Shown: positions 2,801 through 26,843 of the stretch, in pieces
Layout: the number at the start of each line of letters is the position of its first letter
How positions within the stretch are numbered: the first letter of the stretch is position 1
From: an uncultured Gemmatimonadota bacterium
Lineage (GTDB): Bacteria > JAAXHH01
Assembly (NCBI GenBank): GCA_951812955.1
Contig: OX638340.1
Span: 2,528,001-2,592,000 of the forward strand
Direction of reading: 5' to 3'
Length of the DNA stretch: 64,000 nucleotides
Made by a program: the position numbers and the translations under genes
The notes under the pieces: generated by a model
Told to the model about the DNA's origin: nothing
The model's database searches: none
What the model saw: only the letters and a program-made list of their open reading frames with translations

Positions 2801-5866
<3,066 letters not shown>

Positions 5867-5921
5867 AATGCTCCAATTTATGTCGTCGTTCTCTCATTCC
5901 ATGTAATTGCCAACCCATTTC

Positions 5922-6040
5922 TTCCGGTGGCGATAGCGGAGGGGAAACACCTCTTCCCATTCCGAACAGAGTAGTTAAGCCCTCTTGCGCCGATGGTACT
6001 GCTTGGGTGACCTTGTGGGAGAGTAGGACGCTGCCGGGGG
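5922..6040 (+). rRNA. rrf: 5S ribosomal RNA
   Basis: tccggtggcgatagcggaggggaaacacc...ccgaacagagtagttaagcc...gcgccgatggtactg...gggagagtaggacgctgccggg. Confidence 0.9.
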
Positions 6041-6082: not shown

Positions 6083-6147
6083 TTGGGGCTAATGAAAGCT
6101 TTAGATCGCTAGCGTAGTCTGGTTGTCTGGCCAGGTCCGGTCGTCGT

Positions 6148-6822
6148 TTACGCGGCGGTGTTTACAATGCGTCCGTCGAAGAGGCGGATGATCCGGTGGG
6201 CGTGATCGGCCAGAACCTGGTCGTGGGTCACCATGATGATGGTCGTGCCCGCCTCGTTGAGGCCGTTTAGCAGTTCCATGACCTCCGAGCCGTTGGCAGA
6301 ATCCAGGTTACCCGTCGGCTCATCCGCCAGGATCAGCTTGGGATTGCCGATGACCGCCCGCGCCACGGCTACGCGCTGTTGCTGGCCGCCGGAAAGCTGC
6401 TGCGGGAAGTGATTACGCCGGTGGGGGATCTGCATGTGGTCCATCGCCGCATCCACCCGTTCCTTGCGCTCCTGCTTGGACGTGCCCAGGTAGATCAGCG
6501 GAAGCTCGATGTTCTCGTAGACGGTCAGTTCGTCGATCAGGTTGAAGCTCTGGAACACGAAGCCGATGTTGTTCTTGCGCAGATTGGCTCTTTGCCGCTC
6601 GGAGTGGCCGGACACTTCCTGGTCCAGGAAATGGTATTCCCCGCCCGTAGGGTTGTCGAGAAGGCCGAGGATGTTGAGCAAGGTGGACTTGCCGCAACCC
6701 GACGGCCCCATGACCGCCACGAACTCGCCCTGGTCCACGGCCATGCTCACGTCGTTCAACGCCGTCGTCTCCACCTCTTCGGTCGCATAGAGTTTCTGCA
6801 AGTTGCTGGTCGCTATCATCAC
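6148..6822 (-). CDS. ABC transporter ATP-binding protein, MacB/LolD family (copy A)
   Basis: Walker A GPSGCGKST, Q-loop, signature LSGGQQQRVAVARA, Walker B ILADEPTGNLD, H-loop VTHD. About 95% aa and ~92% nt identical to 13626-14297. Confidence 0.9.
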   Translation of the reverse strand: MMIATSNLQKLYATEEVETTALNDVSMAVDQGEFVAVMGPSGCGKSTLLNILGLLDNPTGGEYHFLDQEVSGHSERQRANLRKNNIGFVFQSFNLIDELTVYENIELPLIYLGTSKQERKERVDAAMDHMQIPHRRNHFPQQLSGGQQQRVAVARAVIGNPKLILADEPTGNLDSANGSEVMELLNGLNEAGTTIIMVTHDQVLADHAHRIIRLFDGRIVNTAA

Positions 6823-7014
6823 ACACCCCTTTTGCAGTTTATCGGTATGCGTCGCACCTTAATCATTCGACTTGTGTGCGATGCGCATTGTTTCGTCGCG
6901 ATGTTGTGCATGCTTGTAAATGCTCTGCTTCACTAAGTGTTCGAGTGAGGGCGAAGGCGATTCGTGGAAGGCGGTGCTCCAGGATCAACGCTCTCAATAC
7001 TGAAGTGAAGAAGT

Positions 7015-7521
7015 TCAATCCGTACTATCCGGCAAATTCACTCCAAATTCCTTGATAAACCGCTCAAAGAAACCGGCCGACCTGTATTCCAACAGCACGT
7101 TTACAGGTTCTCCATCCATGCCCGATATGCCGAGCGGCTTTTCTCCCAAGAAAAATTCCAACCCAAGACTATCCACTTCCGGGTAACCGGATGACCGAAT
7201 AATCCACGCCGTGTCGACGACACCAGTTGCGTTCGAATGGACTCGAAGCAATACTTCTCCTTCGTTGATGAACTCGGGCGGAAGCGCTACGGTTAATGGC
7301 ATTAATGGTATTTCCCCATTTGAGCTCTCATCCTTGGAACGGAGAGTGTCTGATTGTCCTGTGCTATCCTGTTCCAGGTCGGTCATCGTCGTATCTATTA
7401 CAGTTTCGCCTTCCCGGTTCACATCGTCCTTTCCTTCACATGCCGTGTGACTCAGGATGAGGAAAAGCGACACCAGCGCGCATAGACTGATCACAGTCTT
7501 TTTTACCATTTGTTGAGTCAT
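7015..7521 (-). CDS. secreted/anchored TonB C-terminal-domain protein (copy A)
   Basis: Start chosen at MTQQMVKK (ATG ends at 7521), with GGAGGA 7 nt upstream on the minus strand. N-terminal signal/anchor. C-terminal region PPEF..GEVLLRVHSNATGVVDTAWIIRSSGYPEVDSLGLEFF resembles the TonB_C fold. Paralog of 19516-19932. Confidence 0.55.
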   Translation of the reverse strand: MTQQMVKKTVISLCALVSLFLILSHTACEGKDDVNREGETVIDTTMTDLEQDSTGQSDTLRSKDESSNGEIPLMPLTVALPPEFINEGEVLLRVHSNATGVVDTAWIIRSSGYPEVDSLGLEFFLGEKPLGISGMDGEPVNVLLEYRSAGFFERFIKEFGVNLPDSTD

Positions 7522-7651
7522 CGACCTTGATCCTCCAGATTGCGACGTTTCCAGTCTATCGGTGGAATACCGGTTGTCCCGCTCAGAATCCATGGTCTTC
7601 GACGTATTTGGCATCAGACCGTAGCCCGGCACCGGCCGGCGTCTATATCGT

Positions 7652-8540
7652 CTACCGGCCCGTCACTTCGATTCGATTCCGGATGCCACGCGTGTAAGTC
7701 AGATGCCCGCGTCGGTCAATCCAGATCCCTTCGACGTGAGGCAAATCATCCAGTAACCGCTTTGAATTCTCGACTCCCATGACGTACGTCGCAGTCGCCA
7801 GGGCGTCCGCCGTCATGGCGTCCGGGGCGATGACCGTGGCGCTGAGCACGTGGTTCGATGAAACCCCCAGCCGTGGATTGAGAATGTGAGCGATACGAGG
7901 GCCCTGGTGCAGTCTATAGTTCTCATAGTCTCCTGCCTTCGCAATGGCCTCGTCTTCGAGTTCGACCATGGCGCATAGTGCATCCATCCGAGCGGTATGG
8001 TGAACGTATCCCGATGCGCCACAGGCGAGTAAGCTCGAGCCATCACAGGGCAAAGATGTCTCCTCCGGCCGAAACCAGGCCACATCGGACCCGGTGGTCC
8101 CGCAACGCCCCGACCGCCCGATCCACCATCTTGCCGATCTCCCTGATCCCGCCATCGGCTTCGAGGGCGACGAGCAATCGAACGTTGTTGCACACGGGAC
8201 AACGAAGATCCTCCTGTACCTCGTAAACGTACCCTACAGGATCGCCCTGTTCACCGAAAATCACGTAGCGGTCATATTCCCGAAAGTCCTCGTGCTTCCG
8301 GGATTCGGCCATGTGGAACGTAACCGAAACAAACTCCGAAACTGTCGGTTCATCGAGCGGTGGAAACAGGTTGGACATGCCGGCTAGCTCGTTTGACATC
8401 CTGTAAAGCGACGGGTCGGATCCGACTACATCGGTTCCGCCGGATCCCATGAGATAGATGAGATTCACGGCCACGACTACGGTGCCTGCTCCGGCGATCA
8501 ACACCACCGCCATTCGACTACGTTTCAAAAACTGCGCCAT
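7652..8540 (-). pseudogene. decayed fusion remnant: N-terminal part of FMN_bind-domain protein joined in frame to the C-terminal ~43% of ApbE, plus a frameshift
   Basis: ORF 8043-8540 aligns to the FMN_bind paralog (18779-19378) up to ...LLVALEADGGIREIG. It then continues directly as ApbE-like KMVDRAVGALRDHRVRCGLVSAGGD, matching ApbE residues ~170-195 of 17708-18709. The ITGATxSS flavinylation motif and the ApbE N-terminal half are missing. ORF 7652-8155 continues the ApbE C-terminus in another frame (frameshift near 8043-8070). Confidence 0.6.
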
Positions 8541-8582
8541 AGGTAAGTCACCCGAATGGACGTCTGAAGAACGTCGGAAACG

Positions 8583-11027
8583 CTACTCGTACCTCAACGC
8601 TTCAACAGGATTCGACCGCGCCGCTTTGAGGACGTGTAGGCCGACCGTGGAGGCCGCTACGGCAAGAATGGCCAGGCCCACCAGGACAAAGAGCGCCGGG
8701 TTGGGCGCAATGCGATAGGCGAAGTCACGCAGCCAACTTTCCATGACGAGGTAGGCGATCGGCCAGGCGATGACGCTCCCCGCAATGGCCATGATCACGA
8801 ACTCTTTCGACAGAAGCTGTACAAGTTGCGCCCTGGTCGCCCCCAAAATCTTGCGAACGCCGATTTCCTTCGTTCGCTGGTGCACGGTGAGGGAGACCAG
8901 GTTGAATAGCCCCAGGAAGGTCAGCACAATGGCAAGCAACGCGCATATTCCGAGGAGCGTGCCAAGGCGTTCTTCAGCCAAATACAGCTGGTCTATATCG
9001 TCTTCGAGAAAGGAATAGACGAGCGGGATTTCCGGGTAATGGGATCTCCAGACGCTATTGAGGTCCTCGAGCGCGGAGGCCGTACTCCCAGGTTGCAGTC
9101 GAACGCTCATGTGTTCGCCAAAGGAACTGCTTAAGAATACCATGGGCTCGACGGGCTGGTAAAGAGAACGAAAGTGGGTGTCTTGAATCACGCCGACGGC
9201 TCTGCCGCGCTGGACGTACTGCGGTAAGACGATTTCGATCGTCTTGTCCAGGGCCACTTCAGCGGAACTCCATCCCAGATGCCGGACGGCCGTTTCATTC
9301 AGGACTACCTCGAATACGGCGAACGGATTGAACATCCTCATATCTCTTGGCTTCAGATTCGAGCCCAGCACCAGGCTTATGTCCAGGGTCTCGAAAAAGT
9401 CGTGCTCCACGTTCACTATGCGGATAGACGAGGATACCGGCATATCGCTGTCGTCCCCGCGTCGAACCATGGTTTCCCCGATCATGCCCCTCCCCGGCGC
9501 GAGCCCGGGAACGTAATCCGACAGGGAGACGCCCTCGATGTACGGTGACCGCAGCAACTCGTTCTGGAATCCATCGGAGGATCTAGGATTAAACTGTTGG
9601 GAGCCTTCAGAAGAGCTTGATTCAATGGCCTCCACGAAGAATCCCGATATGAGGGGAACGACTATCACATTGGATTTTTCGAAGCCCGGAGGTTCGTTCA
9701 TCATGAACCGCAACTGGCTGTAGACCACACCCGTGCCGATGATCAGGATGGCGGAAAGGGCGAACTGGACCGTGATAAGAATACGCTTCACAAAGGGATA
9801 GTCGATCGCCTGGCTCAACCGGCGGCTAAGTGCGTCCATCGGCCGGTATCCAGACAGAACCATGGCCGGAAAACTCCCCGAGAATGCCCCCACGAGGACT
9901 GAAATGGCGATCAGACCAAGCCATATGTCGAGGTGTTGTATAAAACCCATGGACAGTGCCTTCCCAGTCACGGCGTTGAAGGCTGGAAGCGAAAGCCGGG
10001 CAAGCAGAACCGCCAGGACGAGTACCAGGCCTGAGATCATTACGGACCCGCTCAGATACTGCACGACAATACGTGAACGGTTCGCGCCGTACACTTTCAT
10101 TAGGCCCACTTCCTTCGCGCGGGCTGTCGACTGAACCATAGACAGATTGATGAAGTTGATGCAGGCGATCAGCAGCAGGAAAACGGCCCCCGTCATGAGG
10201 GTGTAGAGATAGGCCACACTGCTGTTCGCCTCGAGTTCGTTGAGTAGATTGGAACGCAGGTGAATCGCGGTCAGCGGTTGAAGGGAAAACCGGTAGTCCC
10301 GGATGCTCTCCCGGTTCACGGGCTTGATCTCGGTGTCGAAGTAAGCCTGGAACTTGGACGTCAGTTCCGGCACCAGGCTCTGATCGTGCAAACGCAGGTA
10401 CGTATAGTAGGTTGCGCTCCACCAGTTGTCCATGAACTGCAATTCCGTTCCGAAAGACAGGAACATGTCCGCGGTGAAATGCGTATGGCCCGGGAAGTCC
10501 TCCATGACGCCCGTGATGGTAAAGCTGTACGTGTTGTCCAGGCGCATCACCTCGCCCATGGGGTCCACTTCGCCGAAGTACTTCCTTGCCATCGATTCCG
10601 AGATGACCGCTTTGTTCTGCCCCTCCAATGCGGTGGCGGGATTCCCCTTGAGCAGGGGGATGGTGAAAACGTCGAATAGCGAAGGCTCGGTCCAGTAGAC
10701 CCGGTCTTCGTAGAACTCCCGGTCACCGAACCGTATAAGCCAAATGGCCCGAGTCGCCCGCATGCGGACAGCGCTTGCTACTTCCGGAAAGTTCTGTTTC
10801 AGCGTGGAAGCCGCTGCGCCCGGCGTGCGCGCGTTGTTGCCATTGATCAGCCGATAGACCTGCGGAGCGTACCTGTGGTGTGTATCGTAGGTCCATTCGT
10901 CCTTTATGTACAATAGCGTGAGTACGCACGCGGCCATGGCGATGGCCAGCCCCGTGACGTTGATGGTCGTATGGGATCTTTGCTTGAGCAGGGCTCTGAC
11001 GGCTATTCTGAGGTGGTGGGTGAACAT
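8583..11027 (-). CDS. ABC transporter permease, double FtsX-domain MacB-like (~814 aa, copy A)
   Basis: Start MFTHHLRIAVRALLKQ aligns with paralog start MELPHHLKISTRALLKQ. Two FtsX-like TM bundles with large periplasmic domains. Lies 13 nt downstream of the TPR gene. About 65% aa identity to 14447-16864. Confidence 0.85.
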   Translation of the reverse strand: MFTHHLRIAVRALLKQRSHTTINVTGLAIAMAACVLTLLYIKDEWTYDTHHRYAPQVYRLINGNNARTPGAAASTLKQNFPEVASAVRMRATRAIWLIRFGDREFYEDRVYWTEPSLFDVFTIPLLKGNPATALEGQNKAVISESMARKYFGEVDPMGEVMRLDNTYSFTITGVMEDFPGHTHFTADMFLSFGTELQFMDNWWSATYYTYLRLHDQSLVPELTSKFQAYFDTEIKPVNRESIRDYRFSLQPLTAIHLRSNLLNELEANSSVAYLYTLMTGAVFLLLIACINFINLSMVQSTARAKEVGLMKVYGANRSRIVVQYLSGSVMISGLVLVLAVLLARLSLPAFNAVTGKALSMGFIQHLDIWLGLIAISVLVGAFSGSFPAMVLSGYRPMDALSRRLSQAIDYPFVKRILITVQFALSAILIIGTGVVYSQLRFMMNEPPGFEKSNVIVVPLISGFFVEAIESSSSEGSQQFNPRSSDGFQNELLRSPYIEGVSLSDYVPGLAPGRGMIGETMVRRGDDSDMPVSSSIRIVNVEHDFFETLDISLVLGSNLKPRDMRMFNPFAVFEVVLNETAVRHLGWSSAEVALDKTIEIVLPQYVQRGRAVGVIQDTHFRSLYQPVEPMVFLSSSFGEHMSVRLQPGSTASALEDLNSVWRSHYPEIPLVYSFLEDDIDQLYLAEERLGTLLGICALLAIVLTFLGLFNLVSLTVHQRTKEIGVRKILGATRAQLVQLLSKEFVIMAIAGSVIAWPIAYLVMESWLRDFAYRIAPNPALFVLVGLAILAVAASTVGLHVLKAARSNPVEALRYE

Positions 11028-11040
11028 GATCGGGTGCTCC

Positions 11041-13503
11041 CTACGGTTCCAGGACAAGAAAGTTGACCGACTTGAAGACGCGCTGATCAGCGTGCCGGTC
11101 CGTCAGCGTCACGGTCAGCACATACTCCCCGGCTTCGAGATCCGTGGTGTCCATCGCGGTGTATTCAGCCTCTTCCGCTGAACTCCCCTCGCCTTCGAAG
11201 AAGGACATCACAGTCTGCATGTCGTCCGGCCTTCTGGCCCTGCGGTTCCTCAGTGCGGGCATGCCCAGGGGCGTGATTTCGTAAAGTGTCTCGTAGGAAG
11301 TGCGTCCGGCGTTGCCTAAATCCAGGTTGTACAATTCGTAGTAAACGTAAACGGGGTTTCCCCGAATGTAGAGCCGTCCCGGATTGGGCGTGATATTCAA
11401 CCCCTTGCGCACAAAGGGGCCCTGTACGCCTGACGGCGTGATGAGGGTGGCCAGCTTGAGATCGCTGATGAGCAGGTCGCGGCCGCGGTAGTCGGACAGC
11501 GTGACTGGCTTGCGATACACTCCGACCCGGCTCGTTGTCTCGTCCCGCACCTGGACTGCCAGCGTGAAACTACCCGACGGCGCGACAACGCTTTCAGGCA
11601 GGGTATACACCGGAACTTTCACGTTGCTTTCAGCCATCATACGCTTCGGCCTGTCGAAGGGACCGAAACCGAACTCGTGGGTGAACTGGGGGCTCATGGT
11701 CGAATCACGCAGGGTGACCAGGTGCGCGAGCCGGGTGCTGTTACCCCTGCCGTCCGAGACATCGCCGAACTGCCACACGGGGATGCTGTAGGACAGGTCC
11801 AGTTCCGTCGCGCCGTTGTCAGCCCTGTAGCTTACGGCGTCGAAGGCATATTCGAGTGGTTCTCCCCCGAAGTCGTGCAGGAATTCCTCGGGACTGCGCT
11901 TGATCAGGTTCTCGGCAACTCGTTGAGGATGATGGGTATCGTTTCGACGCATCAACTCGAAACCCGTGATGTCACCAAACGAATCCCCACCTTCATAGAT
12001 TGTCTGAAGTGGATAATCGAATTTCCCACCGCCCATCTGGTCCACGAAAAACAGTTCAAGATTATGCTGTACGTAAACCCAGCTTTCGACCTTGTACGAT
12101 TCTCCGACCAGACGTTTGAGTAACTCGAATGGATTGCTCTCCGACGAGCTCCCCCAGAGATCCACCGATCCCAAATCGAATCCCTGGAGCTGCATGATCT
12201 CCTCATCCAACAACGCCACCGGATCTCCCCTGCCCACCCGCAACACGTAGCCGGACTGCATATTCCGCACGCGTATTGCGTCCACGGCAGGAATCGCCGA
12301 CGGCTTGAAAACGGAAAAGGTGTTCCCATGCCTGCGCAGCAAGAAGTTGCTACGGTCATCCGGCGTACCGTATCGAACGTGAATCTCCCCGCGGCGGTCA
12401 AAGGGATACTGGCCCTCTGAGAAATGATTGCGGGCGTACAGTACGCGCCGGTAGTGTTCCACCAGGCGCTCGTTTTCGACGGTGGCCGGATTGGAATCCC
12501 GTGCGTTCCAGAAGGTCTGCCACAGCGCGTCGCGTTCCGGTCCTTCCACAGCCTCCCAGGTCTTCAATTCATCGGGAGGCGCGACATGTCGCAGGTCCCG
12601 GTACACCGCCTGCTCATCGGGATCGAGACCCGATATATAGGTCTCCAGGGCTTCCTGCAATCGATCGAACCCCCGTTCAGTCGAACCCGAAAGCATGCTG
12701 AACTGAAGCTGCAGGGTCCTGACCTCGTCCGCGACGGCATCTCCTGATTCTTCGACCAACTGTCCCAGGAGTTCAGCACCTATTTCGAACGCTTCGGCAC
12801 GAAGACACACATTGGTAAACCGCTCGAAGGCCCGACGGTGTTTGGGGTTTACCCGGTACTGGTTGAAATAGGCGGCTATCGCTTTTTCGTAGTCCGGCAA
12901 CGGGGGACTTTCATAACATCGTCCCAGTTGATAGTAGGCGTCCTCATGGGATGGATTCAGCTCTACGACCTTGAGGAAATACGTCCTGCCATCCCGGTCG
13001 CTGCCCACGATGGTATCTACTTTTTTATCATTCATGAAGGACATGCCCAGGTAGTACTGGGCGTCCGCGTTGTCCGGATCCAGGCGGATCGCGGTACGCA
13101 ACGCGTTGCGGGCATCCAGCTTTCTGTTTTGCAACTTCAGGTAGGTCTTCCCCAATCCGATGTGACCAGGCGCCCATTTTTTGTCCTGCCGCACTGCGCT
13201 CCTGAACGAACTCAACGCCTCACGGTAGTCGCCCAATTCATACCGCGCCATTCCGAGCCAGTAGTGGGCGGGCGCCGAATCCCCGTCAGCCTTGACGGCC
13301 ATTAGGAAGTACGGCAGCGCTTCCGCGTATCGTCCCTGTTGGTAAAGTGATTTGCCTTTTTCGTGGGCTGGCAGATCAATATCGGATACGGCCGATTGCG
13401 GCGGGGAAGTCCAGGTCTGGGAATGGCCGGGTAAACTCAGTGCAAGCGCGGCGATTGTAAGAAGCAGGCGGACGTACACGTAGTGCCTCTTTGGACGAAT
13501 CAA
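11041..13503 (-). CDS. secreted TPR-repeat protein with C-terminal GWxTD-like domain
   Basis: N-terminal signal peptide. Several TPR motifs (AHYWLGMARYELGDYREAL, AQYYLGMSF, AYYQLGRCY). The central segment RRGEIHVRYGTPDDRSNF resembles the GWxTD family. Abuts the permease gene. Confidence 0.6.
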   Translation of the reverse strand: MIRPKRHYVYVRLLLTIAALALSLPGHSQTWTSPPQSAVSDIDLPAHEKGKSLYQQGRYAEALPYFLMAVKADGDSAPAHYWLGMARYELGDYREALSSFRSAVRQDKKWAPGHIGLGKTYLKLQNRKLDARNALRTAIRLDPDNADAQYYLGMSFMNDKKVDTIVGSDRDGRTYFLKVVELNPSHEDAYYQLGRCYESPPLPDYEKAIAAYFNQYRVNPKHRRAFERFTNVCLRAEAFEIGAELLGQLVEESGDAVADEVRTLQLQFSMLSGSTERGFDRLQEALETYISGLDPDEQAVYRDLRHVAPPDELKTWEAVEGPERDALWQTFWNARDSNPATVENERLVEHYRRVLYARNHFSEGQYPFDRRGEIHVRYGTPDDRSNFLLRRHGNTFSVFKPSAIPAVDAIRVRNMQSGYVLRVGRGDPVALLDEEIMQLQGFDLGSVDLWGSSSESNPFELLKRLVGESYKVESWVYVQHNLELFFVDQMGGGKFDYPLQTIYEGGDSFGDITGFELMRRNDTHHPQRVAENLIKRSPEEFLHDFGGEPLEYAFDAVSYRADNGATELDLSYSIPVWQFGDVSDGRGNSTRLAHLVTLRDSTMSPQFTHEFGFGPFDRPKRMMAESNVKVPVYTLPESVVAPSGSFTLAVQVRDETTSRVGVYRKPVTLSDYRGRDLLISDLKLATLITPSGVQGPFVRKGLNITPNPGRLYIRGNPVYVYYELYNLDLGNAGRTSYETLYEITPLGMPALRNRRARRPDDMQTVMSFFEGEGSSAEEAEYTAMDTTDLEAGEYVLTVTLTDRHADQRVFKSVNFLVLEP

Positions 13504-13625
13504 GAAGTGGCATTGACGATTCGCGTTACCGAATCAAGGGGAGTTGCTTTCAAGGTATCCAATAGACCAGGAATCAACAACCGTCTATGCGACGCAGTTC
13601 CACAAGGTATCCCCATAGGTCGCGC

Positions 13626-14297
13626 TTACGCGGCCTCCGTCACGATCCGTCCGTCGAAGAGCCTGATGGTCCGGTGGGCGTGGTCGGCCAGCGCCTGGTC
13701 GTGGGTCACCATGATGATGGTCGTGCCCGCCTCGTTGAGGCCGTTGAGCAGTTCCATCACCTCGGCGCCGTTGGCCGAGTCCAGGTTACCCGTCGGCTCG
13801 TCCGCCAGGATCAGCCTGGGGTTGCCGATGACCGCCCGCGCCACGGCCACGCGCTGCTGCTGGCCGCCGGATAGCTGCTGCGGGAAGTGGTTCCGGCGGT
13901 GGGGGATCTGCATGTGCTCCATCGCCGCGTCCACCCGTTCCTTGCGCTCCTGCTTCGACGTGCCCAGGTAGATCAGCGGCAGTTCGATGTTCTCGTACAC
14001 GGTCAGCTCATCGATCAGGTTGAAGCTCTGGAAGACGAAGCCTATGTTGGCCTTGCGCAGGTTGGCGCGCTGCCGCTCGGAGTGGCCGGACACTTCCTGG
14101 TCCAGGAAATGGTACTCCCCGCCCGATGGATTGTCGAGGAGACCGAGGATGTTGAGCAGGGTGGACTTGCCGCAGCCCGAGGGTCCCATGACCGCCACGA
14201 ACTCGCCTTCGTCCACGGCCATGGTCACATCGTTCAGCGCCGTCGTCTCTACCTCTTCGGTCGCGTAGAGTTTCTTGAGATGTTCTGTCCTGATCAT
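13626..14297 (-). CDS. ABC transporter ATP-binding protein, MacB/LolD family (copy B)
   Basis: Start MIRTEHLKKLYATEEV (ATG ends at 14297) chosen by alignment with copy A. Same Walker A/B and signature motifs as copy A. Confidence 0.9.
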   Translation of the reverse strand: MIRTEHLKKLYATEEVETTALNDVTMAVDEGEFVAVMGPSGCGKSTLLNILGLLDNPSGGEYHFLDQEVSGHSERQRANLRKANIGFVFQSFNLIDELTVYENIELPLIYLGTSKQERKERVDAAMEHMQIPHRRNHFPQQLSGGQQQRVAVARAVIGNPRLILADEPTGNLDSANGAEVMELLNGLNEAGTTIIMVTHDQALADHAHRTIRLFDGRIVTEAA

Positions 14298-14446
14298 GGT
14301 GCGCTCCCGTAGTGTGGTAATACTCCGTATCCACGCATGCCATTTCGGAATCGTTCCTAATATCAAAGTAGCAAATGAAGAGGGTTGCAATTCCAGGTCG
14401 GAGAGATTAACTCCATAGATTGTGCGACTACGTTCATGCTGGAGAA

Positions 14447-16864
14447 TCACTCATACCTGAGCGCATCTACCGGGTTCAACGGTGCTTCTTTTGTAACATG
14501 GAAGGCAATCGTAGCGATGATTACTAACAGAATCCCCATGCTTACCAAGATGTAGAGGCTAAGGGGTGGAGAAACTCGATATGCGAAATCTTGTAACCAA
14601 ACGGCAGTAACCAAGTACGCCAACGGCCACGCTACCAGATTGGCGATCGCTGCCATAACTACAAACTGTCTAGACAGCAACTGAGTCAATTTCATAACTG
14701 TAGCACCCAGGGTCTTGCGTATGCCTAATTCCTTCGTTCTCTGTTTTGTGGTCAGGGAGACCAGGTTGAAAAGTCCCAGGAATGTCAAGATAGTAGCTAA
14801 GATGGTACAGACACCTATAAGCGAACCTAGACGTTTCTCCGGTACGTAAAGTCGATCAATATCGTCCTCCAAGAGGGAATAGATAAATGGAATTTCAGGA
14901 AAATAAGACTGCCAGGTAAGATCTAGGTAACTTAACGCAGATTCCATTTTCCCATCCTGAAAGCGCACCATCATGTGTTCGCCATTACCGTTCGTGAAAA
15001 CCATCGGTTCAACAGGCTGATAAGACGACCGGAAGTGGGCATCCGCAACGACACCTACAACCCTGCCTCGTTGGGTGATCTGAGGGTATACGATATCTAT
15101 CGTCTGGTCTACTGCTGACACTGGAGAAGTCCAACCTAGGTGGCGTACTGCCGTTTCGTTGAGAACAAGCTCGATTACGGGCAAAGGCCCAAAAGTCGAA
15201 TATGTAGCAAGACTCCTGTGCCTCAAAAAGCGTCCGTGTACCAGCTGTAAACCCAGTGTGTTTATGTAATCGTGCTCAACGCCCACAAATCGTACGGATC
15301 TGGAATTCCTCAGACTGTTTCCTGCCCGAGTTCGAACCATCCCATCACCCATTGTACCACGGGCAGGTTCAAGTGCCGGCACATAAGTTGAGAATGAAAC
15401 GCTGAGTACATCTGGCGATCTCAACATATCGTTTTTGAATCCGCTAGGTGGAACTAGTATTCCGCCTGGGAAGAAGCCTGTTATCAGGGGTACATTGACT
15501 ACATTTGATTCGTCAAAACCCTGGGGTTTGGTCAACATGTATTGAATCTGGATGTAGACCACGCAGGTGCTGATAATCAGAATAGTGGAGAGAGAAAACT
15601 GGATGATGATGAGCATCCGTTTCACCAGTGGAAAGTCCACTGAATGGCTGATTCTGTTTCCAAGAGAAAAGAGAGGGTGTACTCCTGACATAACCAAAGC
15701 CGGAAATCCTCCTGAAACGACTCCAACGATTATCGCAACGACAACTATCCCAAGCCAGATTCCAAAGTCTTCAGTAACGCCAAAAGAAAGCGTTTTACCT
15801 GTCAGCCAATTAAATGATGGCAGTGCAAGATAGGTCAAAATGAGAGCTAAAAACAAAACCAACATCACCATGGTTAAGGATGCAATCATATGCTGCCTGA
15901 TAATCTGAATTCGATCAGCACCGAAAATCTTAATCAAACCCACTTCCTTCATCTGATCAGCCGAATGAACCATAGACAGATTGACAAAATTGATTGAAGC
16001 GATGAGCAACAAGAAGATCGCACCTGAAATGAGCGCAAAGATGTAACTCACACTGCTATTCACCTCGAGTTCATTCAAAAGGCGGGAACGAAGGTGAATC
16101 TCCGTTAGTGGTTGAAGTATGAAACTATACTCCCGGATCCACGCGCTGTTGCTAGGTTTTACCGTTGATTCAAAATACCGCTGAAACTTGTCTTCGAGAA
16201 TTGAAGCCTGGTTACCTTCGTTCAACCGGACGTAGGTGTAATAGTCGGGACGCGACCAGTTGTCAATGTAGGATAGTTCATTGCCGAAACTCAGGAAGAA
16301 CCCAGCCTCGAAATGGGAGTTGACCGGGAAATCCTCCATTATCGCGGTAACGGTAAAATCCCATGTGTTGTCGGCTTGCAACACCTTACCGATGGGATCT
16401 TCCTCGCCAAAGTACTTTCTGGCGACTGACTCTGATATAACGACCTTGCCTATGCCATCCAACGCGTTGGTTTTGTTCCCCTTTACAAGTGGTATGGTAA
16501 AGACATCAAACAAGGAGGCTTCGGTCCAGTATACCTTATCTTCGTAAAAAGCACGATCACCGTACTGCATTAGCCAGATGGCCCTGGCCGCCCTTAAACG
16601 AACAGTACTTACAACTTCAGGAAAGTTCAGCTCAAGGGAACCTGAGGCGGCACCTGGAGTTCGGGCATTGGTGCCGTCAATCAATCGGAAGATCTCGTTG
16701 GCGTGTTCGTGGTGAGAATCGTATTTCAGTTCTTCCTGGATATACATCAGGGTTAAAATACACATAGCCATCCCGACAGTTATTCCGCTGATGTTTAATA
16801 TGGTATTGGATTTCTGCTTTAATAGTGCACGGGTGGAGATTTTCAGGTGGTGGGGTAGTTCCAT
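14447..16864 (-). CDS. ABC transporter permease, double FtsX-domain MacB-like (805 aa, copy B); low-GC
   Basis: Collinear with 8583-11027 over its whole length. About 47% GC, against ~62% for the flanks. Confidence 0.85.
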   Translation of the reverse strand: MELPHHLKISTRALLKQKSNTILNISGITVGMAMCILTLMYIQEELKYDSHHEHANEIFRLIDGTNARTPGAASGSLELNFPEVVSTVRLRAARAIWLMQYGDRAFYEDKVYWTEASLFDVFTIPLVKGNKTNALDGIGKVVISESVARKYFGEEDPIGKVLQADNTWDFTVTAIMEDFPVNSHFEAGFFLSFGNELSYIDNWSRPDYYTYVRLNEGNQASILEDKFQRYFESTVKPSNSAWIREYSFILQPLTEIHLRSRLLNELEVNSSVSYIFALISGAIFLLLIASINFVNLSMVHSADQMKEVGLIKIFGADRIQIIRQHMIASLTMVMLVLFLALILTYLALPSFNWLTGKTLSFGVTEDFGIWLGIVVVAIIVGVVSGGFPALVMSGVHPLFSLGNRISHSVDFPLVKRMLIIIQFSLSTILIISTCVVYIQIQYMLTKPQGFDESNVVNVPLITGFFPGGILVPPSGFKNDMLRSPDVLSVSFSTYVPALEPARGTMGDGMVRTRAGNSLRNSRSVRFVGVEHDYINTLGLQLVHGRFLRHRSLATYSTFGPLPVIELVLNETAVRHLGWTSPVSAVDQTIDIVYPQITQRGRVVGVVADAHFRSSYQPVEPMVFTNGNGEHMMVRFQDGKMESALSYLDLTWQSYFPEIPFIYSLLEDDIDRLYVPEKRLGSLIGVCTILATILTFLGLFNLVSLTTKQRTKELGIRKTLGATVMKLTQLLSRQFVVMAAIANLVAWPLAYLVTAVWLQDFAYRVSPPLSLYILVSMGILLVIIATIAFHVTKEAPLNPVDALRYE

Positions 16865-17226
16865 AACTGGCCTACAGATACTTAGTAAATGGTTCTAAGA
16901 GGGTTGTGATTAACGTCGAAGGGGCAGTTGAAAGTCTATAACTGCCTGTACGTTTAAACTCGTCCTCCGGTTTGATCAGCCCCAGACGTTCGCCGAGTGT
17001 TTTGGACTCGTCCACCACTGGCATTCAGCGAGGAGAGCATTTCCGTTGTCGGTGCGTGGAGCGTCGTTTGTTTTTTAACCTTGATGAATTCAATACCCAG
17101 ACGAAGTCGGTCAATCAACTCTTCCAACTGCTTGATTTGAATAGGCTAATAGAGGAAGTCACGGCGAAGGCTTCACTGGCAATATCGCGACTTTGATTCA
17201 GGTAGTTAATGTTGTCGTACGCATCT

Positions 17227-17400
17227 TAGTCTCCATGTGCGCTGTCAGGTTGGGTCTGTGACGGATTTTGTGTTACTGACTTTATCATGTTAAGGGCACT
17301 TTGTCTTCGTACATGATGATGAACTTGCTGGTGGCGGCCGTCCAGTTGGCGATGGGCCGTGTCTACCTTCGGGCCAGGTAGAGCAGTTTCCTGGCTACCC
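17227..17400 (-). mobile_element. IS256/mutator-family transposase C-terminal remnant (degraded, interrupted by stops)
   Basis: Minus-strand translation gives GVARKLLYLARR*TRPIANWTAATSKFIIMYEDKVPLN. This matches the conserved C-terminal LYLA.R....PI.NW..A.NqF.I.FedR block of IS256-family transposases. No intact ORF. Confidence 0.35.
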
Positions 17401-17707
17401 CGTCGGTGGGGAAGGCGCCGCCGCGCTATGGTCACCCCCAGTCTGCATGAGCACGTTCACCGCCCGTTACAATTCTGCTTCACATTGCATGGCGGCCAGC
17501 AATAGACTGGCAAAAGACGGTCAAAGGACAGGCGTAAACTTGTCGCTCTGAGTGCTATCCTTTACATAAACCTCTTCGACTCAGTCGTCTTCCACGGCTT
17601 CTTTATTCAGTCGACGTTTTCATCAAGCCCTTTAGATCCTCGTCGGTCTGTCTTGAAGCTACCGTGTATTTAACACCGCTCCCTTGTCATGAAGTACGAC
17701 CCACTCG

Positions 17708-18709
17708 TTAATTGACAATCTGCAATCTATTCTGGATCCCTCTTGTAAAAATAAACTGTCCATGCTGATCAATCCAGATCCCCTCGACGTATGGCATATC
17801 GTTCAGCAATCTCTGAGAACTTTCGATACCCATAACATAAGTCGCTGTGGCAAGCGCATCCGCTATCATTGCGTCGGGAGCGATAATCGTGGCGCTATGC
17901 ACGTGATCCGTCGAAGTCCCAAGTCGAGGATTGAGTATGTGTGTAATACGGCGACCTTGATTGATTTTGTAGTTTTCATAACCACCCGACGTCGCAACCG
18001 CCTCATCTTCGATTTCGACTGTGGCGCACAATGTATTGGGATGGTATGGAGACCGGATACCAATACGCCAAAGACGTTCAGGTTCTGGCCTTCCCATGGC
18101 AAGAACATCCCCACCTGCAGATATCAACCCGCATCTAATGTGGCGGTTTCGTAATACGTGAGCCATTCGATCCAATCCGTAACCTTTTGCTATTCCGCCA
18201 AAGTCTACCCCATAACCAGACGAAGCAATTCGTACTTTCTGTTCTTGCACTTGCAACTGATTAAAGTCTACCAGTTCGAGCATTTGCCGTAAGCTTCGAC
18301 TTGACGGATCACAATTATAAAATCCCCAGTGGTACATAATCGGTAGAATTGTCACATCGAAGGCACCATCTGTAATCTCGCCGATTCGTCTTGCTGTAGT
18401 CGCGACCTTGATAAAGTGGGGTGTTACGCCATGCCAAAGCCCATACATGTTGTTTACATGCGTAAGTTCACTGGTATTACGATAGAGGCTTAGCAGGCTG
18501 TCAATTTGAGCTAAAGCATCGAAGGCATCATAAATTGATTCTTTACTGTACTCGCATTCCTTGATTACAAGTTCTACTTTCGTCCCCATATGAATCTGAT
18601 GACGACGAACAAGCCTTTGCTTGTCTGACAATCCTGCGCCAAAATTGTATGGCACAAGTAACATTGCCGATGAAAGGCCGACCGATTTTATGAAATTGCG
18701 TCGCTTCAT
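17708..18709 (-). CDS. apbE: FAD:protein FMN transferase (ApbE family) with twin-arginine signal
   Basis: N-terminus MKRRNFIKSVGLSSAMLL has a Tat motif RRxFxK. ApbE-like blocks are present throughout (GIAKGYGLD, RCGLISAGGD, ADALATA). Low GC. Confidence 0.8.
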   Translation of the reverse strand: MKRRNFIKSVGLSSAMLLVPYNFGAGLSDKQRLVRRHQIHMGTKVELVIKECEYSKESIYDAFDALAQIDSLLSLYRNTSELTHVNNMYGLWHGVTPHFIKVATTARRIGEITDGAFDVTILPIMYHWGFYNCDPSSRSLRQMLELVDFNQLQVQEQKVRIASSGYGVDFGGIAKGYGLDRMAHVLRNRHIRCGLISAGGDVLAMGRPEPERLWRIGIRSPYHPNTLCATVEIEDEAVATSGGYENYKINQGRRITHILNPRLGTSTDHVHSATIIAPDAMIADALATATYVMGIESSQRLLNDMPYVEGIWIDQHGQFIFTRGIQNRLQIVN

Positions 18710-18778
18710 AGGGGCTATGCTATGATGGAATCTAGGACCATCTTTGTTTTCAAAAACAAGGCTACGTACAGAAAGCCC

Positions 18779-19378
18779 CTAACCTCGATGGATATGCCTA
18801 AGTCTATTGAGAGCATCAACAATATGAATCGAGCTTTTGGTAGCACCTGTGATTCCGTCGATATTTTCGCCTAATACGTAGAAATGTAGGTTCGGTTTCG
18901 ACTTAAATTGCCTCAGAAACCTCGTTTCATCCTCAACAGATAGTGGTTCACCGGAGAGTTCAAGGGGTTCAAGCACTCTGATATCATGGAGCCGACCCAA
19001 GTCATCGAGTGCGACGAGCATTCGGACGTTATTGCAAACAGGACATTTGAGATCCTCCTGTATTTCGTAGACGTAGCCAACAGTGTCGATTCGTTCGTCA
19101 AACACCACATATCGATCGTAACCTCTGAATTTCTCGTGTTTGCTAGAATAGCTTTCAGAGAAAGCGGATATAGTGAATTCCCTTAAGATACGATCGTCAA
19201 GTGGTGGGAATATGTCGGATGAAGTAATCGAACCACTTCCCGATCCCAAGTTCGACACGTGTGAGTAAATCACATCGTCATCACATGAATGTCCGGATAA
19301 GTAGACTATATTGACCACAGCAATTACTACTCCGGTTATAAGAAACATGGTTCTTTGAATGAGTTTGAAATTTCGCAT
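18779..19378 (-). CDS. membrane-anchored FMN-binding (FMN_bind) domain protein, predicted flavinylation substrate
   Basis: Start MRNFKLIQRTMFLITGVV (ATG ends at 19378) chosen by alignment to the copy-A paralog. N-terminal TM helix. C-terminal FMN_bind domain with flavinylation motif DGITGATKSS. CxxC (CPVCNN) within the domain. Confidence 0.7.
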   Translation of the reverse strand: MRNFKLIQRTMFLITGVVIAVVNIVYLSGHSCDDDVIYSHVSNLGSGSGSITSSDIFPPLDDRILREFTISAFSESYSSKHEKFRGYDRYVVFDERIDTVGYVYEIQEDLKCPVCNNVRMLVALDDLGRLHDIRVLEPLELSGEPLSVEDETRFLRQFKSKPNLHFYVLGENIDGITGATKSSIHIVDALNRLRHIHRG

Positions 19379-19515
19379 ACTACAACCGAACTCCATCTTC
19401 GTTTGAGCAGAAGAGGCCGAAGTTTGACTGGTTGTTCCTTGGGAGCCACGACATAGATTTGGGATTTCACTGACTGAACAGAATGTTGAGTTGAGGGGAG
19501 GCCGAGCCAATACAC

Positions 19516-19932
19516 TTATCTAAGGCGGAAGCTCATTGGAAAGTAGAATTGCGCAGATATAGGCTTTCCTTCCTTAGTCGCTGGCTTGAAAATCATCATT
19601 CGTGCTTGCGACAGTGCAAGACTATCTAGTTCTGGATGGGTCGACGATTCTATGATCGAAACAGATTCCACCGTGCCATCTGCCTTAGATCTTAAGAGAA
19701 GTACAACATCGCCTTCATTGCTGTACTTATCCTGTGGCGTGGGTCTAAACAATAGTCGTGGAGACGTATCCCAATCACCCACTTTAGCTATAACTTCAGT
19801 GTCAACTTGGGTTTCTTCCACCGGCACACTATCGTTCTCTACATTTCTGTCGTTACTGCAGGAGATGACTAACGAAAAGAGTACAATCTGGGACAGGCTG
19901 AATCGAAGCATTTGTGGAGCCCTTTCTGTCAT
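19516..19932 (-). CDS. TonB C-terminal-domain lipoprotein (copy B)
   Basis: Lipoprotein-type signal (..LFSLVISC, probable start at internal Met 19911). C-terminal segment GDVVLLLRSKADGTVESVSIIESSTHPELDSLALSQARMMIFKP is TonB_C-like. Paralog of 7015-7521. Confidence 0.6.
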   Translation of the reverse strand: MTERAPQMLRFSLSQIVLFSLVISCSNDRNVENDSVPVEETQVDTEVIAKVGDWDTSPRLLFRPTPQDKYSNEGDVVLLLRSKADGTVESVSIIESSTHPELDSLALSQARMMIFKPATKEGKPISAQFYFPMSFRLR

Positions 19933-20022
19933 ATGAGGTCGATTTCTGAACGCGAGGTAAATTCTGATTCATGTTCTAACTTTCAATGTGATTCAAAATC
20001 ACCAGTATAAGTTAAAACCTGA

Positions 20023-21735
20023 TCAATCGGGGCTATTGACCCGAGAAGTAAATCGAAAATTGTATTTAAATATCGTATTTTGGGGGACGATGAGTCGTGT
20101 TCCCATAGTGGGCATTAAACGAAACCTGCCTACAGACTCTAAGGCGATACTATCCAGTGCCGGATGTGCTGATGGTGTCTTTGTCCAAATCGAATCTACG
20201 ATACCATTTGAGTCGAAAAGTACGTTCACTGCAATTTCCATTTCGTCAAGATGACCGTACTCAAGAGGGAATGCACGACTCGTAGCCGTACCGAGGTGCA
20301 AGATTAGAGGTTCTTCATACGATGGCACAACATAGTCGTCAATGATCCCGTCGGTCACTAGTCGAATGTATTGGTCATATCCTTCCAAGGATCGCCAGGA
20401 ATCATCTTTTGTGAATCTGGCGATACTCTGTGCAAAAGATGTAAAAGGGAGGTCACCGATACGGCGAGGATGGGACATCATGTTGACGGATTGATTGTTG
20501 GCGTACGATCTGATAAAAAGACTCGATTCATCTATCGGCATGGAAGACACGTTATCGAAGTATCGTGTGAAAGTTGACCGGTCCGACCCGTTGGAATCAT
20601 GGGCTTCGGTGGACGGCATGTTAGTGAAGTATTGAGAGATATCAAATCGGTCTGACCCGCTGGATGCCTGCACTTCGCGATAGGTAGTTGTAGTCAGATA
20701 GTACTCCACATTTGAAACGTAGAATACGGAAATGGTCGCATCATGAGACCGGACGTAGTCTGATATACCACGCAAGGCTGTTTCACCGGCGAAATCACCT
20801 ACGACTGGAACGATCAAGTTCCTCCCGTGCAACTTCTTGACGACGTCAAATGCACTATCATCAGCAAGGAAGTTGGCTTGCTCCCCACTTATCGTTTCTG
20901 CAAGAATCAACTCCCGCAGACTCGGGAAATTAAAGGTTGCATCCCCCGGTGTTCCCAGATCGTACTGGATGTCTAACTGGCTCCTGAAGAAAGCCTGATA
21001 GACTCGTTCGACAGCTTTCATATCTTCCATCGAGTCTATGCCATACGAATGTAAATGGGACTTGATGACCCGGAGATTTCGCTCGTAGAGTTTTACATCG
21101 GGATCTATTCCGTCGAAATATGCGATCAGCGTTGCAACAGATGATTCACTTCGAGACCAGGGCCGGACCGGTCCTCCCTTAAATATCTCGGCCAGGTAGG
21201 AGAGATTCCGGTTCAATGGTTTGCTGAGCAGCCTAGACAGGAATTCAGCACTGTCGCTGGACTGAGCGAAGAGGGACTTGTAGATCAGGTGCAACAGCAT
21301 GTTATCGCGACGAATGTCAACCACGAAAGCCATGTGCGGCCTGGTCTCGGCGATGTAGGTAAAATTCTGTTCGGGGCCGACACCCACATAAACGCCACCG
21401 GAAACGTGCCGTTCGCGTAGTACGGCAAATGGATGCAGGTAAGAAGATTCGTTTGAGGTGAAATTGGTTGAATGAAAGGAGCCACCCGTCTCCGACAGTT
21501 CTCTAATCAGGTTCGAGAAGGCTGGCGTGGACAGTGAGTCCGGGAGGGCACCTGCTCTTGGATATGGCTTTACAGTCCTCTTGTTAGACCAATCAGAAGG
21601 ATTGTAACACTGGACTGCAAACAACATCACGACAACACCTGCCGTTATCCATGTTGTTGTTTTCCATATAACCATATCCGAGGATTTCCAAGCAGCTAAA
21701 GATTGACCTAAGTATTGTGAAAGTCTCTCAGCCAC
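20023..21735 (-). CDS. hypothetical membrane-anchored protein (570 aa) with C-terminal TonB_C-like domain
   Basis: N-terminal TM helix (WITAGVVVMLFAV). Large domain with a glycine-rich GVYVGVGPEQNFTYIA ... AFVVDIRRDNM segment. C-terminal ~80 aa (NGIVDSIWTKTPSAHPALDSIALESVGRFRLMP) resembles the TonB_C fold. Low GC. Confidence 0.5.
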   Translation of the reverse strand: MAERLSQYLGQSLAAWKSSDMVIWKTTTWITAGVVVMLFAVQCYNPSDWSNKRTVKPYPRAGALPDSLSTPAFSNLIRELSETGGSFHSTNFTSNESSYLHPFAVLRERHVSGGVYVGVGPEQNFTYIAETRPHMAFVVDIRRDNMLLHLIYKSLFAQSSDSAEFLSRLLSKPLNRNLSYLAEIFKGGPVRPWSRSESSVATLIAYFDGIDPDVKLYERNLRVIKSHLHSYGIDSMEDMKAVERVYQAFFRSQLDIQYDLGTPGDATFNFPSLRELILAETISGEQANFLADDSAFDVVKKLHGRNLIVPVVGDFAGETALRGISDYVRSHDATISVFYVSNVEYYLTTTTYREVQASSGSDRFDISQYFTNMPSTEAHDSNGSDRSTFTRYFDNVSSMPIDESSLFIRSYANNQSVNMMSHPRRIGDLPFTSFAQSIARFTKDDSWRSLEGYDQYIRLVTDGIIDDYVVPSYEEPLILHLGTATSRAFPLEYGHLDEMEIAVNVLFDSNGIVDSIWTKTPSAHPALDSIALESVGRFRLMPTMGTRLIVPQNTIFKYNFRFTSRVNSPD

Positions 21736-21771
21736 TTCTTTTGACTAAGAGACTCTCACGCCGGATCAGCC

Positions 21772-23055: not shown

Positions 23056-23620
23056 GGCAAGTGTACAAACTATGAGATATCGATAGTTGAAAAACTTCAG
23101 TTGAGATCACCCCTGAGACTATGGACTGGATTCCGCAATACATGTTGCGTTGTGCCGACAATCGCCGTAAAGAGTTCAATTATAGACTATTCAGAGAAGA
23201 CGTGTCGGCAGCTTTGAAGAAATGTTACGAAACAGTAAGTGTCAAGAAAGTGCTGGTCACTGGTATTAGTCGTTACAAGGACCAGAACGAGGTCTTGTAG
23301 AAAATACTGGTCTAAACTAACACGGAATAGGAAAGGGAAGGTATTGCGAAACTATTGCTTGCGTTGTAGAACCGGCCATTCAACTCTGTGTGGTCGATTC
23401 AACCTGGCGGACCGCAGGTCGATTGGATTGTTCTTAAGGCTTTTTCAACTCGATTGTGTATCGTAGCCACGAGTTTTTAGCCGAAACAAAGCGACGCCCT
23501 TAAAACTTGACACCAGAAGCTGGATCGCAACATATTAGAGTTTTCCCGGTGAGTTGCCTTGTTTGAACTTTAAATGACTCGTAGAACGGAAGAGAGCGGT
23601 CCTGAAGAGGAGGAGTGTTC

Positions 23621-26783: not shown

Positions 26784-26843
26784 CTCAGGCCGCACTAATG
26801 CCGGCTATACTGACTCAGACCGCATGCAATCCTGGAGGACGCG

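Follow-up and report, generated by a model that had tools for sequence, protein, structure and literature searches.

Two copies of a conserved ABC ATPase gene beside more diverged double-permease modules in an uncultured Gemmatimonadota bacterium

The window analyzed here, a stretch of 64,000 nucleotides (nt) from an uncultured Gemmatimonadota bacterium (assembly GCA_951812955.1, contig OX638340.1, positions 2,528,001 to 2,592,000), contains two loci, A and B, each with a gene for an ATP-binding cassette (ABC) ATPase of the MacB/LolD/FtsE type and a gene for a large membrane permease, permA and permB, respectively. Comparison with orthologous loci in related genomes revealed that the histories of the ATPases and of the permeases are discordant. 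We consider it probable that both ATPases are copies of one unit conserved throughout a clade, and that reassortment brought them together with permease modules of much greater age before the divergence of the present species.

Both ATPase genes are located on the minus strand (A at 6148-6819, with an alternative GTG start at 6822; B at 13626-14297), are intact, and encode proteins of 223 amino acids that match the Pfam family ABC_tran (5e-36 for A and 6e-35 for B). Walker A (GPSGCGKST), signature (LSGGQQQR), Walker B (ILADEPT) and H-loop (VTHD) motifs are present in both translations. A blastn comparison that included approximately 250-300 nt of flanking sequence yielded a single significant match, between 6139-6797 and 13618-14275, with 595 of 659 positions identical (90.3%) and one gap. 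This tract begins at about codon 8-9 and stops 9-10 nt beyond the stop codon (in copy A it runs from about codon 9 to 9 nt beyond the stop), and its longest exact run is 52 nt; the flanks gave no other match. A preliminary description of the window had noted near-identity from about codon 10 to a few nt past the stop between unrelated flanks, which agrees with these boundaries. It had also put the similarity at about 95% of residues and 92% of nucleotides; the genes are indeed highly similar, but the measured values are lower, 208 of 223 residues (93.3%) and 88.9% of nucleotides over the full coding sequence (CDS) in the codon alignment. From the same alignment we calculated a proportion of synonymous differences (pS) of 0.313, a synonymous divergence (dS) of 0.405 and a non-synonymous divergence (dN) of 0.048 (dN/dS of 0.12). 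With synonymous sites randomised under the ATPase's own codon usage, the expected pS was 0.545 +/- 0.043, and the lowest of 300 draws was 0.406; the observed pS lies 5 standard deviations (SD) below this saturation expectation, and the contrast between the ATPases and the permeases is therefore not an artefact of codon bias.

The permease genes, permA (8583-11027, minus strand, 814 amino acids) and permB (14447-16864, minus strand, 805 amino acids), each encode two stretches of PF12704 (MacB_PCD) and two of PF02687 (FtsX) according to Pfam. As the preliminary description stated, they are collinear and far more diverged than the ATPases, but they share 454 of 801 residues (56.7%) instead of the 65% it gave; their nucleotide identity is 61.4%, pS is 0.76, i.e. 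saturated, so that dS is not computable, and dN is 0.33. Genes with ApbE and FMN_bind domains are also duplicated across the two loci, with divergence similar to that of the permeases: the ApbE fragment of locus A and the ApbE of locus B are 57% identical at the protein level and 60.4% at the nucleotide level (pS 0.76, dN 0.35), and the corresponding values for the FMN_bind fragment and the FMN_bind gene are 45% and 51.1% (pS 0.845, dN 0.53), with dS not computable in either case. All three pairs are thus synonymously saturated, and their dN is 7-fold above that of the ATPase pair, which is itself unsaturated at a dS of 0.40. Hence the ATPase and permease pairs do not show similar synonymous divergence, and the contrast in the preliminary description holds. 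Set against each other, the ATPase values (dS 0.40, dN 0.048) and the permease dN of 0.33 indicate that the ATPase pair is diverged to the level of orthologs and the permease pair 4-5 times deeper by dN. The conservation profile of permA and permB was examined for a better-kept loop that would contact the ATPase; identity is fairly even, 40-77% per block of 30 residues, with nothing decisive.

The different GC backgrounds reported earlier for the two permeases (58% vs 47%) were confirmed, with 56.8% in permA and 46.4% in permB. GC content at third codon positions (GC3) is 0.84 in ATPase A and 0.815 in ATPase B (both genes having 61% GC overall), 0.735 in permA, 0.51 in permB and 0.43 in the ApbE and FMN_bind genes of module B; as the other window genes have GC3 of 0.66-0.86, the ATPase values are typical of the host. 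A low-GC segment at approximately 14.3-23.5 kb (14300-23500; 45-50% GC, vs about 62% elsewhere in the window) contains an accessory module in decay, and ATPase B sits at its edge, where the GC shift is abrupt and takes place within about 150 nt (14300-14450). The equivalent region in the related loci L042, L004 and L011 is also of lower GC and has different permeases.

To place the two ATPases among their relatives, we scanned species-representative genomes and compared 10 kb on either side of each locus (related loci are denoted by L numbers). At least 12 loci from approximately 11 metagenome-assembled genomes (MAGs) or species carry an ATPase 91-98% identical to A or B at the protein level, the next best among the matches listed being 77% identical. 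The MAGs in question are labelled Gemmatimonadetes, Latescibacterota or "bacterium" and are mostly host-associated. At 90% identity A and B are assigned to separate protein clusters, with 97 and 109 sequences, respectively, and those members that carry a name are Gemmatimonadota proteins. The 23S rRNA of the window is 97.6-97.9% identical to those of L004 and L011, and its whole rRNA operon is 95.1% identical to that of L091, a locus on the contig of L081. ATPase B is 93% identical at the nucleotide level to the genes of L001-L005, L009 and L011 (dS 0.26-0.30), its closest relatives among the loci compared being L002, L003 and L005 (dS 0.26-0.29), and ATPase A is closest to L042 (92%, dS 0.34) in the same set. 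In the neighbor-joining analysis A and B are sisters in 0 of 500 bootstrap replicates, and A groups with L042 in 92%; likewise, A and B share a single nearly private site (rank 61 of 105 pairs), and A and L042 share 18. The two other sampled pairs of ATPases from a single genome (L003/L011 with dS of 0.34, L081/L091 with 0.35) are not less diverged than pairs from different genomes (median 0.43, range 0.20-0.57), and the divergence of A from B is the usual one between species for this gene. The outgroup L012, with 77% protein identity, reaches ATPase dS of 1.5-3.

The non-coding leaders of the two genes are also distributed across species. The A-type leader of approximately 90 nt (6820-6913, minus strand), which blastn and alignments identify as a remnant of the intergenic region between the gene for a membrane fusion protein (MFP, the HlyD-type adaptor discussed below) and the ATPase, is common to window A, L042, L004 and L091 and unrelated to the B leader; the blastn matches that contain it cover window positions 6083-6913 against L042 and 6164-6914 against L004. 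The B-type leader of 30 nt (14298-14327, minus strand), which includes a ribosome-binding site and up to the end of which the blastn matches extend, is shared by window B, L081, L084, L001-L003, L005 and L007. Of the 21 sites that separate A and L042 from B, L002, L003 and L005, 9 are in the first 22 nt, beside the distinct leader, and no clear internal mosaic or breakpoint was found within the ATPase CDS.

Among the permeases we distinguished at least three lineages, 55-65% identical to one another. The permA-type lineage (814 amino acids, 81-85% identity within the type) includes orthologs in L005 and L090 with 84-85% identity to permA (for L005, 84%, dS 0.63 and dN 0.084). The permB-type lineage (805 amino acids, 70-86% within the type) has GC3 of 0.48-0.52 in four genomes whatever the flanks, and its members are 86% identical to permB in L081 (dS 0.40, dN 0.071) and 70% in L084 and L087; proteins of the third type have 803-804 amino acids. 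Across the related genomes the ATPase adjoins many different duplicated FtsX/MacB_PCD permeases, or none. In L004, L008 and L011 the neighbours of this ATPase type are permeases with no more than 25-38% identity to permA and permB, and three or four of their genes occur for each ATPase gene. We also observed that these genes form arrays of 3-4 double permeases per single ATPase in L008 (400-9924) and L004 (6044-17285), and that one permease copy in L008 and one in L042 are apparently broken into two pieces.

The history of locus B is best illustrated by L081, from an independent Tara metagenome assembly, in which DUF7790 is followed by the genes for TonB_C, FMN_bind and ApbE, the decayed adaptor, permB and the ATPase. 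The jump in composition is the same as in the window, with GC3 of 0.48 in permB, 0.90 in the ATPase and 0.41-0.53 in the neighbouring genes, and the junction recurs in two Logan assemblies (L081-L083). ATPase B has its positional ortholog there (dS 0.34), and the partner genes have diverged to a similar extent, with dS of 0.40 for permB, 0.31 for ApbE (89.5% protein identity), 0.20 for FMN_bind and 0.49 for DUF7790. The shared junction and the ortholog-level divergence together imply joint inheritance of ATPase and low-GC module since before the split between the window and L081 genomes. The adaptor gene of this module, detected with the L003 MFP in tblastn, is a pseudogene (16953-17601, minus strand) with in-frame stops and frameshifts, in which only about residues 105-297 remain. 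It is decayed in L081 too, and the identity between the window and L081 is 70-79% there vs 87% in the neighbouring genes, which fits neutral decay of an already dead gene. In the other direction, L081 597-5362 has no counterpart in the window by blastn. Between the two ATPase copies of this relative (L081 13495-22418 and L091 1-7865) there is an apparent peptide-product cluster with genes for radical SAM, pentapeptide-repeat, S8 and S41 peptidase, glycosyltransferase, ABC_membrane exporter and BtrH_N proteins and another double permease. L091 itself comprises an intact adaptor gene, the ATPase and an rRNA operon.

The intact form of locus A is retained in L005, which has DUF7790, the permA ortholog, FMN_bind, ApbE, the adaptor and the ATPase. 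By comparison, in the window a deletion of approximately 840 nt has joined FMN_bind to the second half of ApbE, leaving two overlapping open reading frames (ORFs) in a dead remnant (7652-8540, minus strand); its Pfam ApbE match covers profile positions 180-265 only, and its translations align to the FMN_bind protein (18779-19510) and ApbE (17708-18709) of module B. This remnant and a small ORF occupy the 1.76 kb that separate ATPase A from permA. The small ORF (7015-7632, minus strand, 205 amino acids, 50% GC) stands in the place of the adaptor gene, of which about 90 nt of the spacer to the ATPase survive; it has no Pfam or NCBIfam match, and shows 33% identity over 150 amino acids to an L086 ORF in tblastn, short matches in the TonB_C region of L081, and weak similarity to small TonB_C-like proteins encoded close to the DUF7790/TonB_C genes of L086 and L081. 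All related loci carry the gene for the HlyD-type adaptor, of 444 amino acids, directly upstream of the ATPase. It is 83-97% identical between species at the protein level, and its dS (0.21-0.81, mean 0.52) correlates with that of the ATPase (rho of 0.57; the close pairs have ATPase dS of 0.20-0.22). Hence neither locus in the window possesses a working adaptor gene (B has the pseudogene and A none), while both ATPases and both permeases are intact. An intact adaptor, P0206, is encoded elsewhere on the same contig of 3,813,436 bp, and is 87% identical to that of L003. The duplication thus involves a whole module (permease, FMN_bind, ApbE, adaptor and ATPase) in two versions, differently permuted and differently decayed, and is more extensive than the preliminary description had recognized.

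Several related loci retain traces of rearrangement at the ATPase gene. L084 differs from L003 by a 4.3-kb low-GC insertion, consisting of DUF7790 and a permB-type permease, right after the ATPase in a locus of 65% GC. Ahead of the insertion lies a second copy of approximately 200 nt from the downstream flank, which takes in the 3' end of the adjacent SBP_bac_5 gene (L084 8372-8575); after the insertion come a leader and a 42-nt 5' stub of an ATPase, fused to the last codons of that gene (L084 12558-12720). This structure looks like the result of a single-crossover integration of a circular piece, and suggests that both pasting of the ATPase and movement of modules can occur via homologous recombination in the ATPase gene. 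In L004 a 5'-truncated ATPase is located between two permeases, and in L090 a permA-type permease, FMN_bind and ApbE are followed by only the last 36 codons of an ATPase. The stubs of L084, L090 and L004 suggest that the ATPase gene was a site of recombination more than once, and synteny of the window with L081, L042 and L005 breaks at the edges of the ATPase unit. Permease modules with no ATPase at all are found in L086, L087 and L089, where a search for ATPase remnants found none.

From these observations we infer recombination at the ATPase gene as the mechanism. The unit, composed of the gene and its leader of approximately 30 nt, would have been duplicated or pasted by homologous recombination beside older permease modules. 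The ATPase copies would coalesce only at about the radiation of the clade, and permA and permB would represent two old lineages with their own orthologs elsewhere. Copy A, adjacent to the rRNA operon, would have lost its adaptor gene, and copy B would have been joined to the low-GC permB module, the own adaptor of which is now a pseudogene; the assembly of locus B would predate the split from the L081 genome. The proposal in the preliminary description that the event was confined to the ATPase is retained in this form, as duplication or recombination of the ATPase unit (from about -30 nt to the stop) is needed, but its recent date is not, given the A/B dS of 0.40. Several points weigh against this reconstruction. 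The permease modules may equally well have moved beside resident ATPase copies. The positional orthologs A and L091, both beside an rRNA operon, are no closer (dS 0.49) than the paralogs (dS 0.35-0.40), which also fits slow homogenisation across the clade. The ATPase tree is nearly star-like, and with approximately 160 synonymous sites the standard error of dS is about 0.06, which makes any order of duplication and speciation events uncertain; in addition, the strong codon bias depresses dS. A run test for an A/B conversion tract was marginal (P = 0.028, uncorrected) and is not used as evidence here. Finally, as the relatives are known as 10 kb on either side of each locus, their copy numbers per genome are lower bounds.

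One of the two explanations offered in the preliminary description, concerted evolution by gene conversion confined to the ATPase CDS, would, if recent or still under way between A and B in this genome, account for a sharp homology tract between unrelated flanks. The two copies are in direct orientation, 7.5 kb apart, their 52-nt exact run is sufficient for RecA-type recombination, and the marginal run test among variable sites leans the same way. Our results contradict this proposal: a dS of 0.40 is not recent, each copy has closer relatives in other species, and the two are never sisters in the bootstrap replicates and share a single private site; their leaders differ and are each common across species, and the permB-ATPase junction is kept in L081. 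Moreover, copies homogenised by conversion are expected to be closest by genome, and this was observed neither for A/B nor for L003/L011 or L081/L091, other within-genome pairs being no closer than between-genome ones. We therefore regard such conversion as very improbable. It is also quite improbable, if somewhat less so, that the ATPases date back as far as the permease paralogs without any recombination, having remained similar through extreme purifying selection and a bias toward GC-ending codons. Nucleotide-binding domains of ABC systems are in general far more conserved than the membrane domains, the ATPase GC3 of 0.81-0.91 leaves fewer synonymous states, dN/dS is as low as 0.12, and the star-like tree, with most pairs at dS of 0.3-0.5, could hint at a plateau. 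Yet pS is 5 SD under the saturation expectation, the ATPase dS tracks that of the adaptor and resolves close pairs at 0.20-0.22, and the outgroup shows that it can rise to 1.5-3; in addition, the B leader, which is not under coding constraint, is common to other species, and the L081 ATPase keeps its GC3 of 0.90 beside genes at 0.41-0.53.

The whole low-GC permB cassette might have been imported horizontally beside a resident host ATPase, in which case no copying of the ATPase is needed. Such an event would agree with the constant composition of the permB type in four genomes, including the insertion in the GC-rich L084 locus, with the host-typical GC3 of the ATPase, and with the existence of several permB-type and third-type modules that are orphan, i.e. 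devoid of an ATPase. On the other hand, the module carries its own decayed adaptor, the ATPase stub after the cassette permease in L084 suggests travel or recombination together with an ATPase, and no flanking direct repeats, integrase or transposase of note were found around the low-GC segment in the window. This explanation, which we find rather unlikely, overlaps the favored one, the sole difference being the partner that is taken to have moved. That the low-GC segment was joined to the high-GC ATPase by an assembly or binning artefact, as the abrupt GC shift at 14300-14450 might suggest, is extremely improbable, as the same junction is present in the independent Tara assembly and in both Logan assemblies and the protein set of the window is on one contig of 3.81 Mb.

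A more speculative extension of the recombination scenario, which we regard as unlikely but deserving mention, is that the ATPase gene serves as a portable region of homology, or landing pad, at which homologous recombination could capture and duplicate low-GC permease cassettes and exchange them between genomes. The cassettes would consist of the DUF7790-permease pair, often accompanied by a sensor kinase, two response regulators, FMN_bind and ApbE. If true, it would account for the near-uniform ATPase across loci and species, for the breaks of synteny at its edges, and for the leftover stubs and duplicated flanks in L084, L090 and L004. Such a process would resemble cassette capture by integrons, but without an integrase.

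As to function, the co-occurrence of genes across the related loci fits a system in which one type of ATPase, with the adaptor supplied in trans, would energise several permeases, and judging from the gene content it is plausible that in the window genome the loci draw on the same adaptor and have ATPases that can probably replace each other. The system probably acts in the manner of MacAB-type exporters, its permease being a fused double unit. DUF7790 is encoded almost always upstream of double permeases of any lineage (just upstream of them in the DUF7790-permease pairs of L081, L084, L086, L087 and L090, and also in the window at 20023-21735), which suggests a functional pair. That a sensor kinase, two response regulators, DUF7790, FMN_bind and ApbE regularly accompany the permeases leads us to speculate about a regulated function in the envelope that involves a flavinylated protein.

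The loci consist of parts typical of MacB-type (type VII) ABC exporters. The best NCBIfam matches of the ATPase are DarD (277 bits vs a cut-off of 375), FtsE (222 vs 265), LolD (219 vs 308) and MacB (227 vs 966); DarB and DarC score 119 (cut-off 700) and 174 (cut-off 450), and the best match of both permeases is ADOP (TIGR03434), with 284 bits for permA and 207 bits for permB against a cut-off of 622. Since all these scores are below the curated cut-offs, the genes are assigned to no named equivalog. With MacAB, LolCDE, FtsEX and DarBCD (type VII ABC systems) the loci share the ATPase motifs, the MacB_PCD and FtsX permease domains and, in the relatives, the HlyD-family adaptor beside the ATPase. 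Unlike in MacAB, however, the permease is a fused double unit of approximately 810 amino acids and not a fusion with the nucleotide-binding domain as in MacB, and both window loci are without a working adaptor. The darobactin exporter DarBCD is separated from them by all three scores being below the cut-off; moreover, darA and darE are not present in the window, and Pfam detected no radical SAM gene in its 6-24 kb region. The similarity to ADOP comprises two FtsX units in one polypeptide of approximately 800 amino acids, many divergent paralogs per genome, and the occurrence of some related copies without an ATPase. ADOP, however, is known from Acidobacteria, and its designation as "orphan" means, according to the TIGRFAM description, that no gene for an ATP-binding protein is adjacent, whereas here the host belongs to Gemmatimonadota and each window permease shares its cluster with an ATPase. 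We know of no energy source for the "orphan" ADOP-type permeases.

Sharing of one conserved ATPase by several membrane components is known for MsiK of Streptomyces, MsmX of Bacillus subtilis and the group II energy-coupling factor (ECF) module, all of which serve importers of other ABC classes with a single ATPase gene. The idea is the same here, but one type of ATPase is found beside permeases 25-57% identical to one another and is itself present in at least two diverged copies, and the sharing is deduced from comparison. Gene conversion is known to keep the copies of tufA/tufB in Salmonella and of rRNA operons about 99% identical and clustered by genome. With conversion between paralogs the ATPase pair shares the discrete tract of high identity, the unrelated flanks and the discordance with the neighbouring duplicated genes, but its copies differ by 10% and each groups with genes of other species. 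A literature search on ADOP and on gene conversion in ABC ATPase paralogs found nothing relevant.

Our results imply that a large gap in identity between ATPases and permeases of paralogous ABC systems is not by itself indicative of recent gene conversion, and that comparison across species is needed. They suggest that in host-associated Gemmatimonadota a conserved ATPase and adaptor work with a changing set of duplicated FtsX-type permeases, and this architecture of one ATPase and an adaptor provides a testable lead on the energy source of related "orphan" permeases of the ADOP type. In practical terms the consequences are modest, as this is a pattern of evolutionary genomics in a known class of exporters and not a new molecular system.

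Analysis of the surrounding sequence showed that the window begins with an rRNA operon on the plus strand, comprising 16S (890-2447), tRNA-Ile and tRNA-Ala in this order between 16S and 23S, 23S (2801-5868) and 5S (5923-6039), the last of which is approximately 110 nt from the 3' end of ATPase A. All genes relevant to the ATPase and permease loci are on the minus strand, where their 5' to 3' order is truncated PDZ kinase, DUF7790, FMN_bind, ApbE, decayed HlyD-type adaptor, permB, ATPase B, a TPR protein, permA, the dead FMN_bind/ApbE remnant, the small ORF and ATPase A. The TPR protein (11041-13503, minus strand; Pfam TPR families), which lies between the two modules, has an 80% identical ortholog in L011 that adjoins the rRNA operon there. 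In module B the intact ApbE (17708-18709, minus strand; Pfam ApbE 7e-72) is a member of the FAD:protein FMN transferase family, and the FMN_bind-domain protein (18779-19510, minus strand; Pfam FMN_bind 1e-4, 23.3 bits vs a cut-off of 22) probably has its true start at an internal position, its L081 ortholog being of 189 amino acids. The DUF7790 protein (20023-21735, minus strand) matches its Pfam family at 2e-30. The sensor kinase gene (21772-23055, minus strand) is truncated: Pfam finds PDZ alone, with a membrane part, while the HisKA_3/HATPase part is absent and neither response regulator is present. Its orthologs in L081, L087 and L089 are PDZ-HisKA_3-HATPase_c kinases of 888 amino acids; in relatives the kinase is followed by two GerE response regulators and three small ORFs, none of which occurs in the window.

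At the end opposite to ATPase B the low-GC segment is bounded by the gene for EF-G (23615-25696, plus strand). Allelic replacement of this segment, with a sharp conserved flank at 23.5 kb, was considered and rejected, because the flank is EF-G itself and its 90.6% identity is explained by constraint. Downstream of EF-G we also found two more ABC ATPase domains (25812-27551, plus strand), which are 31-34% identical to ATPase B and belong to an unrelated ABC system.

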